A stretch of 64,000 bases of DNA from Escherichia coli. Its GTDB lineage: Bacteria > Pseudomonadota > Gammaproteobacteria > Enterobacterales > Enterobacteriaceae. Positions 2,761 to 9,562 of this stretch are shown here, in pieces. Location of the stretch: the NCBI RefSeq assembly GCF_003018115.1, contig NZ_CP027457.1. One strand, given 5' to 3'. Numbering within the stretch: position 1 is the first letter of the stretch; the number at the start of each line of letters is the position of its first letter. Position numbers and translations under genes: made by a program. Under the pieces are notes generated by a model. That model was given only the letters and a program-made list of their open reading frames with translations, searched no databases and had not been told where the DNA came from.

Positions 2761-2792
2761 GTAGATGCCTGAATCTCTATTCAGGCATCTAC
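2761..2792. promoter_or_regulatory. perfect palindrome (14-bp arms, 4-nt loop) GTAGATGCCTGAAT-CTCT-ATTCAGGCATCTAC; possible intra-operon attenuator, RNA processing site or protein-binding site
   Basis: Read directly from the sequence, between the small ORF stop (2677) and the transporter start (2838). No clean T-run follows it. Confidence 0.4.
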
Positions 2793-4225: not shown

Positions 4226-5878
4226 ATGTCCAAACCATTTATCTGGCAAGAACCGTTTCTACAAAATAAAGACGGTACAGAATATACATTAATTAGCGAT
4301 CAGCATATTACAGTAACGGAATTAGACGGCGAAGAAGTGATAAAAATCGCTCCTGAAGCATTAACGCTGCTTGCCCGGCAGGCATTTTATGAAGCCTCTT
4401 TTTTCTTACGTTCCGCTCATTTGCAACAGGTCGCCAGCATTCTTAACGATCAGCAGGCCAGTAGTAATGATAAATACGTTGCGTTGCAGTTATTACGTAA
4501 TGCTGAAGTCTCAGCAAAAGGGGTATTACCCAACTGTCAGGATACCGGCACCGCAACTATTGTTGCCAGTAAAGGGCAACAGATATGGACCGGAGGTAAC
4601 GACGCTGAAGCCTTAAGCAAAGGCATTTACAGTACTTTCCAGGAAAATAATCTGCGCTTTTCACAAAATGCGCCGCTGGATATGTATACCGAAGTCAATA
4701 CGCAAACCAATCTCCCGGCGCAGATTGATATCAGCGCTGTCGCTGGTGATGAGTACCATTTTCTCTGTGTTAATAAAGGGGGCGGCTCCGCCAATAAAGC
4801 CGCGCTTTATCAGGAAACCAAATCCTTATTGCAACCAGAAAAACTGACCGCATTTTTAATCGAAAAAATGAAATCGCTGGGCACCGCTGCCTGCCCGCCT
4901 TACCACATCGCCTTTGTCGTCGGAGGGCTTTCAGCCGATCAAACCTTAAAAGTTGCCAAGCTGGCCTCAACGAAATATTACGACAATTTGCCCACCAGCG
5001 GAAACGAGCAGGGACAAGCATTCCGTGATATTGAGCTGGAAAAAGCGTTGCTCGAGGCCAGTCAGCAATTTGGTATTGGTGCACAATTTGGGGGGAAATA
5101 TTTCGCTCATGATATTCGCGTCATGCGTCTGCCGCGTCACGGTGGCTCTTGCCCGATAGCTATGGCGCTCTCCTGTTCTGCCGATCGCAATATCAAAGCA
5201 AAAATTAACAAACACGGTATCTGGCTGGAAAAACTCGAACACAATCCGGGGCAATATATTCCAGCCTCATTGCGGGAAGAAAATCACGCGCAACATGTAC
5301 AACTGGATCTAAACCGTCCGTTGCGTGACGTGATGCTGGATCTCGCCAGATTACCGGTAGGCACCCGCGTGTCGTTAAGTGGTCCCATCGTAGTGGCGCG
5401 CGATATCGCCCACGCCAAAATAAAAGCGCGGCTGGATAGCGGCGAATCGATGCCGGAGTACCTGAAGCATCATATTGTCTATTACGCTGGCCCGGCGAAA
5501 ACACCGGAGAACATGGCCTGCGGTTCACTGGGTCCAACCACGGGCGGTCGAATGGACGGTTATATCGATACCTTCCAGGCGGCTGGCGGCAGTCTGGTGA
5601 TGTTATCGAAAGGTAACCGCAGCCAGCAGGTCACCGATGCCTGTCACAAACATGGCGGCTTCAATCTGGGAAGTATTGGCGGTGCTGCTGCGTTACTGGC
5701 GCAAGAATATGTCAAAAGTCTGCGTTGCCTGGAATATCCGGAGCTGGGTATGGAAGCGGTGTGGATGATGGAAGTGGAAAATCTGCCCGCATTCATCCTG
5801 GTAGATGATAAAGGCAATAATTTCTTTAGTCAGTTTGAGCAGCAACACCGCTGCGCCAGTTGCCCTGCGGGACATTAA
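4226..5878 (+). CDS. fumD: class I (Fe-S) fumarate hydratase paralog, 550 aa; candidate mesaconase (FumD-like)
   Basis: Near full-length similarity to E. coli FumA/FumB as I remember them (WQEPF, GVLPxCQDTGTA, [41 protein letters not shown], GSLGPTTxGRMD). The symbol is from my memory of a described O157:H7 mesaconase and is not verified. Confidence 0.75.
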
Positions 5879-6493: not shown

Positions 6494-6520
6494 CTGCGCC
6501 TGGCATCCTGCCAGGCGCAG
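6494..6520. terminator. hairpin CTGCGCCTGGCA-TCC-TGCCAGGCGCAG between convergent genes
   Basis: Perfect 12-bp inverted repeat lying between the adenosyltransferase stop (6490) and the LysR stop (6524), followed by GTTTTA. Confidence 0.5.
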
Positions 6521-6523
6521 GTT

Positions 6524-7429
6524 TTACATCTCCTGCGGTACGACCGATTTCGCCAGCAACCATTCACGAAATTGCTGCAAGTGCGGTGAGTCAGACTTCT
6601 CTTCCTGCCACGTCATAATAAAACGATTACCGGTACGAATAGGCACATCACAGGGGATCACCATATCGCCACTATCCAAATCATGTTGAATAGCGAACCG
6701 TGGTAACAGCGCCACGCCGAGATTAGAGCGCACGGCGGCAATCAGCATTGAAAGCAAATCGAAACGTGGTCCGTTGTTGACCAGCGGACTGCTAACGCCA
6801 GATAAAGCAAACCACTCTTCCCAGCCAGTAATACGGGTGCTTTGATGCAGAAGTGGTAACTCAGTAAGCAGTTCTGCCACTGACAGTTTTTGATCGGACA
6901 TTGCAAGCAAACTGCCGCTGCATACCGGCAAAATCTCCTCATCAAAGAGATATTCTACTTCCGCCCAGGGCGCGCAAAAATTTTCGCGCATAATGACAGC
7001 ATCGTACTCCCGATTAAGAAAATCGCCGTTATTAGCTAAAGAATGAATATTAACAATAATATCGGGATGTAACTTTGTGAATTCATGTAAATTTGGGATC
7101 AACCAGTGGGTACTAAAAGTAGGATTAACGGCAAGTTCAATAACCTGAACCGTAGGCTGCCAGGTCATAATGGTATTGGTATCGCGTTCCAGCTTATTTA
7201 ATGTTTCTTTTACTATCCCCAGGTAATACTTCCCTGCATCATTAAGAAAAATGCGTTTTTTAGAGTGTGAAAATAACGGAGTACGTAAAAATTCCTCCAG
7301 CGCACTTACTTGTCTGAATACTGCACTTTGGGTTAACGCTAACTCCTCTGCCGCTCTGGTATAACTTTCATGACGTGCGACGACCTCAAAAGTCACCAGC
7401 AGTTCCGTTTTAGGTATTTTCCCTCGCAT
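6524..7429 (-). CDS. LysR-family transcriptional regulator, 301 aa
   Basis: N-terminal HTH region (LTQSAVFRQVSALEEFL) and the usual ~300 aa length. Convergent with the pathway operon. Confidence 0.85.
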   Translation of the reverse strand: MRGKIPKTELLVTFEVVARHESYTRAAEELALTQSAVFRQVSALEEFLRTPLFSHSKKRIFLNDAGKYYLGIVKETLNKLERDTNTIMTWQPTVQVIELAVNPTFSTHWLIPNLHEFTKLHPDIIVNIHSLANNGDFLNREYDAVIMRENFCAPWAEVEYLFDEEILPVCSGSLLAMSDQKLSVAELLTELPLLHQSTRITGWEEWFALSGVSSPLVNNGPRFDLLSMLIAAVRSNLGVALLPRFAIQHDLDSGDMVIPCDVPIRTGNRFIMTWQEEKSDSPHLQQFREWLLAKSVVPQEM

Positions 7430-9433: not shown

Positions 9434-9526
9434 GCCTGCGGTTCTCACGCAGGTCAAATCTGGTATCTGCGTAAGCTAACAAACTTGTTTATCAACAATT
9501 TCAGGCCATCCGAAGATGGCCTGAAA
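9434..9526. terminator. two hairpins (CCTGCGGTTCTCACGCAGG and TTCAGGCCATCCGAAGATGGCCTGAA) between convergent rtcB-like and mngB
   Basis: Inverted repeats read directly in the 145-bp gap between convergent 3' ends. Confidence 0.45.
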
Positions 9527-9562
9527 TTGTTGCCCCCCTTAGATACACTTTAAGCGCAATAA

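Follow-up and report, generated by a model that had tools for sequence, protein, structure and literature searches.

A candidate cis-acting RNA stem-loop ahead of the symporter gene in the methylaspartate island of Escherichia coli, and its counterparts in other Enterobacteriaceae

The methylaspartate island of Escherichia coli carries a perfect palindrome in the spacer between a DUF4387 gene and the symporter gene that follows it, and this raises the question of whether the sequence works as a structure in mRNA, as a terminator, as an operator in duplex DNA or as a copy of a dispersed repeat, or whether it has ceased to work at all. Here we show that it is a single-copy, locus-bound stem-loop that lies within an operon, lacks terminator features and is selected for pairing in the sense-strand RNA.

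The window analysed is a 64-kb stretch of E. coli DNA, and the region of interest shows 100% identity to several E. coli chromosomes. The methylaspartate (mesaconate; glutamate fermentation) cluster forms an accessory island between cydA and mngB, with the gene order glmS-glmL-glmE-mal-atuA-DUF4387 and then, beyond the palindrome, symporter-fumD-cobO, where mal is methylaspartate ammonia-lyase, atuA an AtuA-family gene, fumD a class I fumarase, and the symporter is annotated as dicarboxylate/amino-acid:cation (glutamate/dicarboxylate). The cluster has been described by Kronen and Berg (PMC4682846), who showed FumD to be a mesaconase, named the transporter GltP, attempted anaerobic growth of an O157:H7 strain on glutamate and regarded the fate of citramalate as unclear; according to the published analysis, the cluster contains no citramalate lyase. 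The AtuA-family and DUF4387 genes (993–2677 in the window) overlap by 4 nt, and the pair accompanies the methylaspartate genes across Enterobacterales, with distant homologs in Bacillota and in other Proteobacteria MAGs.

The genes from the lyase to cobO are co-oriented, and their junctions are short or overlapping except for the gap that holds the palindrome and a 107-nt gap before fumD. Four features frame the spacer and the end of the gene string:

2675–2677, + strand: stop codon of the DUF4387 gene, the upstream edge of the gap (sequence, annotation).
2713–2741, + strand: part of the gap predicted (MFE and ensemble) to pair with the symporter ribosome-binding site (RBS), start codon and first codons; a prediction only, as no covariation is available for it inside E. 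coli.
2825–2852, + strand: symporter translation initiation region and first codons, with the Shine–Dalgarno (SD) sequence GGAGG at 2828–2832 and ATG at 2838–2840.
6494–6520, + strand: strong terminator-like hairpin 3' of cobO (d score +4.4).

From the DUF4387 stop to the ATG at 2838, a start taken from the RefSeq annotation, the spacer measures 160 nt, exactly the gap that the earlier note on this DNA had given. The same note placed the palindrome inside one operon, and the co-oriented gene string agrees, as does the strong hairpin after cobO, which is the sole strong terminator-like site on the + strand and the likely end of the transcription unit that holds the palindrome. No sigma-70-like promoter was found on the + strand inside the gap. 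The palindrome occupies what we infer to be a transcribed spacer between co-oriented cistrons, acting on the sense strand. A LysR gene (6524–7429, minus strand) lies convergent with cobO, 3.7 kb downstream of the palindrome, and the segment 6487–6527 between these two genes forms a strong hairpin with a 12-bp perfect stem and nine G-C pairs, probably a terminator for both directions. In the literature searched, we found no transcript data for locus tags ECs0756–0762 or Z0891–0896 or for the pathway, and the supplementary data of an EHEC RNase E CLASH study held only one rRNA chimera with ECs0760.

The palindrome and the RNA structure that it encodes comprise the following parts:

2761–2774, + strand: 5' arm of the palindrome and of the RNA stem, GTAGATGCCTGAAT, which aligns with the 5' arm of an ortholog hairpin (H2, below).
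2775–2778, + strand: loop CTCT (CUCU in RNA; UUUU in about 33 E. coli genomes).
2779–2792, + strand: 3' arm of the palindrome and of the RNA stem, ATTCAGGCATCTAC.
2759–2794, + strand: full RNA stem-loop by RNA folding, 16 pairs including an A-U and a G·U extension.

The two arms are complementary at 14 of 14 positions across 2761–2792, which makes the description of a perfect palindrome with 14-bp arms exact, and in RNA the stem is lengthened by G2760·U2793 and A2759-U2794. The prediction of a very stable RNA stem-loop also held: in a 76-nt RNA window the centroid structure is the hairpin, at -23.7 kcal/mol (z-score -4.5), a stability that no dinucleotide shuffle out of 200 equalled. The stem-loop itself, with a stem of 14–16 bp, has an energy of -20.9 to -23.2 kcal/mol. 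In 30 Markov-simulated 64-kb sequences the longest perfect stems reached 8–12 bp, against 14 bp at this site, and in the window itself the palindrome ranks second by length among perfect hairpins. No other copy of the 14-mer arm with up to two mismatches occurs in the window.

The longest perfect hairpin of the window, at 9493–9532, has an 18-bp stem (CAACAATTTCAGGCCATC-CGAA-GATGGCCTGAAATTGTTG) and lies 75 nt past an RtcB-family gene, adjoining the end of mngB; a U-tract is absent, and the d score is -46. Its arm and the palindrome have GATG(G)CCTGAA(A)T in common, possibly by chance, and of 5426 E. coli genomes only 133 contain the 91 nt around it.

The earlier note had allowed that the palindrome might prove to be a copy of a common genome-wide repeat. 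Among 5426 complete E. coli genomes, the surrounding 1-kb region is present in 1124, and a 44-nt query centred on the palindrome found 1123 genomes with one locus each (two BLAST places, as both strands match), so that the carriers of the palindrome coincide with the carriers of the island. A genome-wide repeat of the REP/BIME or ERIC-like kind is rejected, because there is a single copy per genome and it occurs only with the island. In one E. coli genome the region is present a second time, on a plasmid. The DUF4387 protein of the window also recurs, at 100% identity, on a 7.3-kb contig labelled as a Collinsella sp. (Actinomycetota) MAG (L005), whose DUF4387-symporter gap has the same sequence as that of E. 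coli; the contig is most likely a binning or contamination artefact.

Within E. coli, alleles of the 44-nt segment were counted over 1124 records:

Window allele: perfect stem, 610 records.
A2783G: U-A becomes U·G, 316 records.
A2765G: A-U becomes G·U, 96 records.
C2775T + C2777T + A2783G: two loop changes plus U·G, about 33 records.
A2787T: U·U mismatch, 30 records.
C2786G: G·G mismatch, 11 records.

About 1055 of the 1124 records have a perfect or wobble-compatible stem, and a disruptive allele is present in 41; both common stem variants, A2783G and A2765G, preserve pairing on the sense strand. In a strain designated 100416 (L004, locus 1–400), an IS1B element is inserted within the 5' arm, and at this junction DUF4387 and the upstream genes are missing and the symporter gene is intact.

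Comparison beyond the species was based on a scan with the DUF4387 protein, taking one genome per species, which yielded 58 loci. A hairpin of different sequence at the same relative position, here called H2, was found in 32 other Enterobacteriaceae species, belonging to Citrobacter, Klebsiella, Enterobacter, Lelliottia, Pluralibacter, Buttiauxella and a Raoultella MAG, and including Salmonella enterica subsp. arizonae and diarizonae. In these carriers the DUF4387-symporter gap spans 161–170 nt, and H2 lies about 85 nt past the DUF4387 stop and about 40–45 nt ahead of the symporter start, typically in the form GGCGTGCGTCTGAGC-(7–11 nt)-GCTCAGGCGCACGCC. All ortholog stems are stable (-16 to -38 kcal/mol), and their loops, of 4–11 nt, are unrelated, free in both sequence and length. 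In a plain MAFFT alignment of 36 gaps, which was not fitted to structure, the E. coli arms fall on H2, with a common core GCCTGA/TCAGGC and partly conserved flanks. A covariance model trained on the 32 non-Escherichia sequences only has its best match in the 64-kb window at 2736–2819 (24.2 bits, rough E 0.006), arm on arm, and this recovery gives independent support for orthology with H2.

The pattern of change in H2 bears on the question of which molecule needs the pairing. RNAalifold predicts the hairpin without help; 13 of its 15 pairs vary in both partners, and standard pairs fill 93.6% of cells, against only 28–41% when the 3' partner is slid by 1–3 columns as a control. Among the cells that are not Watson-Crick, 55 are G·U on the + strand and 13 are A·C, the form that a wobble pair of the opposite strand would take; as the sequences are related, these cell counts overstate the number of independent events, and strand-biased deamination may account for some of the surplus of G·U. 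The two-sided changes together with the G·U excess argue for selection on pairing in the sense-strand RNA and not for a DNA operator. By these sequence comparisons, the palindrome is best taken as the E. coli ortholog of H2, with its pairing selected in the sense-strand RNA.

The same observations bear on the proposal, made in the earlier note, that the palindrome is a duplex-DNA operator for a dimeric regulator such as the LysR-family protein of the island. Perfect dyad symmetry and a LysR gene on the same island are what such a site would be expected to offer, but arm sequence varies between genera with complementarity kept, and an excess of G·U over A·C deviations is meaningless in duplex DNA. 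Moreover, the T-N11-A core of LysR-type sites is absent within 2761–2792, the half-site does not recur elsewhere in the 19-kb island when up to three mismatches are allowed, upstream of glmS and of the LysR gene included, and no promoter-like site is adjacent. With neither that core, a conserved half-site nor a second site, a LysR operator is rejected, and operator function of any such kind is extremely improbable.

The operon does not need H2, since Yersinia, Morganella and Pseudescherichia carry the same DUF4387-symporter gene pair and H2 is absent there; Yersinia and Morganella have a hairpin and U-tract directly 3' of DUF4387, and Pseudescherichia a hairpin in that position. In Yersinia alsatica (L043, 5930–6701), the stretch immediately past the symporter region carries, on the opposite strand, five tandem tRNA genes and an RtT RNA. 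The clusters of Escherichia sp. E1V33 (L007) and E. whittamii (L008) have no symporter, fumD lying 268–290 nt past DUF4387; their gap (4316–4590) carries another, AT-rich hairpin (ATAAATGTACCTG...CAGGTGCATTTAT) about 30 nt past the stop, and the H2 model finds no match in it. Insertions of about 120–200 nt occur in the gaps of Klebsiella oxytoca (L027, 4316–4580) and Citrobacter amalonaticus S646 (L016, 4440–4600), and we take them to resemble ERIC/IRU-type repeats (e.g. ...CCCAGGAGCGTACATCCGTACATGACGGGGGTGAGC...); the element built around H2 is intact in the former (79.7 bits for P1-H2, P1 being described below), and H2 is degraded in the latter.

A strong stem-loop in an untranslated spacer is also what a Rho-independent terminator or attenuator looks like, and what follows the stem therefore matters:

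2793–2810, + strand: pyrimidine-rich, G-poor tail UUCUCCUGAUUCUGAUUU, without a proper U-tract (T score 2.40, d score -10.2).

Scores were of the d'Aubenton-Carafa type, in our own implementation. The T score of the tail (UUCUCCUGAUUCUGA) compares with 1.99–4.75 for the real terminators of the window, but the d score is -10.2 at best and falls to -39 once the stem is extended, where five terminator-like hairpins of the window score from +4.4 to +31.5; the stem has a G+C content of 43%, low for a terminator, and a terminator consensus scan did not call the full hairpin. In the 32 non-Escherichia orthologs there is no U-tract, the stem being followed by tails such as ACCCTACAC and ACCCUACAC with T scores of 0.07–0.77 and d scores of -22 to -65. 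With negative d for the site and all orthologs, and no U-tract in any ortholog, an intrinsic terminator is rejected as the conserved function. A narrower version would have a leaky intrinsic terminator, specific to E. coli, lowering transcription of symporter, fumD and cobO after the enzyme genes; the palindrome is suitably positioned for this, and a pyrimidine-rich stretch after the stem, more U-rich than that of any ortholog, is found in E. coli only. The scores that count against termination in general count against this attenuator as well, and fumD and cobO, which the pathway requires, lie downstream, so that we regard it as quite unlikely.

In the other genera, H2 is the tip of a larger leader with an upstream hairpin (H1), an outer helix (P1) and invariant boxes. 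Across the 32 non-Escherichia gaps, 31% of columns show no variation, compared with 12% when third codon positions in the adjacent gene are counted. The 9 nt of GGTTGGTCA are the same throughout, and CCCTACA and AAC are also conserved. H1 is found in L009–L040, L055 and L058 (at about 4340–4380 in most loci), representing 32 non-Escherichia species. Five of its eight pairs have two-sided changes, G·U outnumbers A·C by 53 to 7, and its loop, GCUGUAUC, is conserved. The 5' arm of H1 (UUGGAG..., SD-like) mimics the SD region of the symporter (CCAUUGGAG versus CCGAUGGAG), and 85% of cells are complementary between the 3' arm and the SD, a share that falls to 29–59% with a slid partner. At about 4386–4396 in the same set of loci, 31 of them, drawn from at least seven genera, share an unchanged 11-mer, GCGGTTGGTCA; because it is invariant although only 12% of the codon third positions in the neighbouring gene are, its conservation suggests, on sequence grounds, recognition of a specific sequence beyond pairing.

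P1 pairs GGUUGGU with ACCARCC around H2; it was predicted de novo on a trimmed alignment and is 94% paired, and all of its variation is one-sided, A or G opposite U, and hence compatible with wobble. A further helix, P0 (CCAUUGGA/UCCGAUGG), would arise from pairing of a CCAUUGG box with UCCGAUGG. Taken jointly, H1, P1 and H2 (30 pairs) contain 18 pairs with two-sided change against 11.8 +/- 1.9 in shuffles, and none of 500 shuffles reached 18. No two-sided covariation was found in P0, P1 or the anti-SD:SD helix, for which shuffles perform equally well, and without it these three remain hypotheses. P0 and the exchange of H1 for an anti-SD:SD alternative are geometrically possible and mostly paired, with one-sided changes only. 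Folding predictions pair the first two G of the SD in nearly all of the 36 sequences, and the hairpin stands at the apex of whole-gap folds.

E. coli lacks H1 and most of the boxes that are invariant in the other genera, and has a degraded counterpart of P1:

2747–2753, + strand: degraded P1-like 5' strand GGUUGUA (covariance-model alignment; predicted only), matching the invariant GGTTGGT box found elsewhere.
2810–2816, + strand: P1-like 3' strand UAUCGCC (covariance-model alignment and MFE; predicted only).

Covariance-model alignment forms six of seven pairs in this helix, and the MFE structure pairs 2747–2749 with 2814–2816 and 2751–2754 with 2809–2812. The E. coli spacer is predicted to fold into a long irregular hairpin, in which 2713–2741 pairs with the SD, the AUG and the first codons; deletion or disruption of the stem in silico leaves the predicted SD pairing unchanged. 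The E. coli version of the leader may be partly decayed.

Attempts to connect the leader with something familiar led to several rejections. A known RNA family is rejected, since Rfam 15 gave no credible match: for E. coli it returned only noise (no score over 20 bits, every E above 1), and at the corresponding site of four ortholog loci, from Citrobacter, Yersinia, Morganella and Pseudescherichia, it returned nothing. A metagenome scan with the loose pattern GGTTGGTCAN{35,62}CCCTACA gave 120 mostly chance matches, of which only L108 fits the model, and no new diversity. The CACAACA and ACACAA boxes of the orthologs had suggested a target of the sRNA GcvB; GcvB itself was recovered and confirmed, but R1 duplex energies were no better than those of dinucleotide shuffles (z from -0.9 to +1.7), and this idea is rejected at the resolution of the R1 duplex-energy test. 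A leader peptide from the gap ORFs of 27 and 49 aa likewise finds no support, since indels of 1, 2 and 8 nt interrupt that stretch among the aligned orthologs.

One way to read the larger leader is as a switchable riboregulator of symporter translation, of which the palindrome would be a module: a P1-H2 domain would lie between H1 and the SD, and a signal (protein, metabolite, sRNA or temperature) would shift the balance between H1 and the anti-SD:SD pairing, with E. coli holding a simplified, perhaps constitutive version. Consistent with this are the covariation and conserved loop of H1, the invariant sequence around the helices, the de novo prediction of P1 with its wobble-compatible changes, the complementarity of the H1 3' arm to the SD and the predicted pairing of the first two G of the SD. 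Set against them, P0, P1 and anti-SD:SD do no better than shuffles in two-sided covariation, nothing in Rfam matches, the arrangement occurs at a single locus and only among closely related genera, which is not typical of riboswitch classes, E. coli has neither the H1 5' arm nor the invariant boxes, and the sole trans-factor candidate tested, GcvB R1, gave no signal. We consider this riboregulator rather unlikely. A more specific version would make the palindrome the simplified E. coli remnant of a signal-sensing Enterobacteriaceae leader of about 150 nt that switches translation of the glutamate transporter, composed of H1 with its GCUGUAUC loop, a GGUUGGUCA box forming P1 around H2, C/A-rich internal loops, and an SD able to pair with the H1 3' arm, the signal being a pathway metabolite, a protein or temperature; taken as a whole, this proposal is improbable.

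It could also be that the palindrome has no present function in E. coli and is the slowly decaying remnant of an ancestral leader hairpin. The loss of H1 and of most conserved boxes would fit, and so would the population data, in which the sampled E. coli polymorphisms concentrate in the palindrome, at least 41 genomes tolerate a broken pair (the U·U and G·G alleles) and one strain has an IS1 inside the 5' arm. Yet the stem is still perfect in more than half of the records (610), the two common variants remain wobble-compatible on the sense strand, and many stem positions in E. coli have changed on both sides relative to the other genera with pairing kept, which requires continued selection along the Escherichia lineage. 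A functionless remnant is accordingly unlikely.

The most likely explanation, which we infer from position, fold and conservation, is that the palindrome acts in cis, as an mRNA element, to set the expression of the transporter against that of the upstream enzymes. More specifically, it may work as RNA in two capacities, as a decay barrier and as the nucleus of a leader fold, tuning symporter-fumD-cobO through effects on mRNA stability and translation, a reading to which we give about an even chance of being right. Transcription would read through the palindrome into symporter-fumD-cobO. The hairpin would then be a barrier to 3'-to-5' decay that shields the upstream enzyme segment of the polycistronic mRNA, coming into play once the single-stranded pyrimidine/AU-rich tail has been cut. 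This tail is a likely place for an endonuclease to enter, and it includes GAUUU, similar to the sequence that RNase E prefers. As the nucleus or tip of an irregular leader fold whose base would partly occlude the symporter RBS, the hairpin would also touch on translation, and barrier and occlusion would jointly set the level of symporter-fumD-cobO against that of the upstream enzymes.

Placed among known systems, the palindrome belongs to a familiar class, the intercistronic mRNA stem-loop, but it is not a REP element. Intercistronic stabilising stem-loops of polycistronic mRNAs include the malE-malF hairpins of E. coli, which are REP repeats, and the hairpins of the Rhodobacter puf operon. 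Like these, the palindrome is stable, has no U-tract, is in sense orientation within an operon, stands between cistrons expected to need different levels, and is constrained in pairing and not in sequence; unlike the mal hairpins it is single-copy and locus-specific, and unlike both systems its counterpart H2 in other genera is flanked by invariant boxes and a second hairpin. It also has points in common with RBS-occluding translational leaders and riboswitch platforms, in that the predicted fold has, at its base, the first half of the gap paired with SD and start codon, and in that unpaired boxes are conserved, and an anti-SD possibly present, in other genera; it differs from them in having no Rfam family, no two-sided covariation in its long-range helices, a single locus, and no known ligand or protein. 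The likeness to Rho-independent terminators ends at the tail: the palindrome has no U-tract and scores below the real terminators of the window, its orthologs continue with ACCCUACAC, and pathway genes are needed downstream. Similarly, apart from its dyad symmetry and the LysR gene on the island, it departs from LysR-type binding sites in core motif, in conservation among orthologs, in its RNA-type substitutions and in having no neighbouring promoter.

We found no description of the hairpin or the leader in the literature searched. The methylaspartate island is present in about one-fifth of E. coli, including O157:H7, O145 and O55:H7, and in many opportunistic Enterobacteriaceae as well, and no regulatory feature of its operon had been proposed before the conserved RNA structure ahead of the transporter gene. 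The palindrome offers a concrete handle for reporter and mutational work on the methylaspartate operon. More interesting than the hairpin itself is the larger conserved leader of Citrobacter, Klebsiella and Enterobacter, which may be regulatory.
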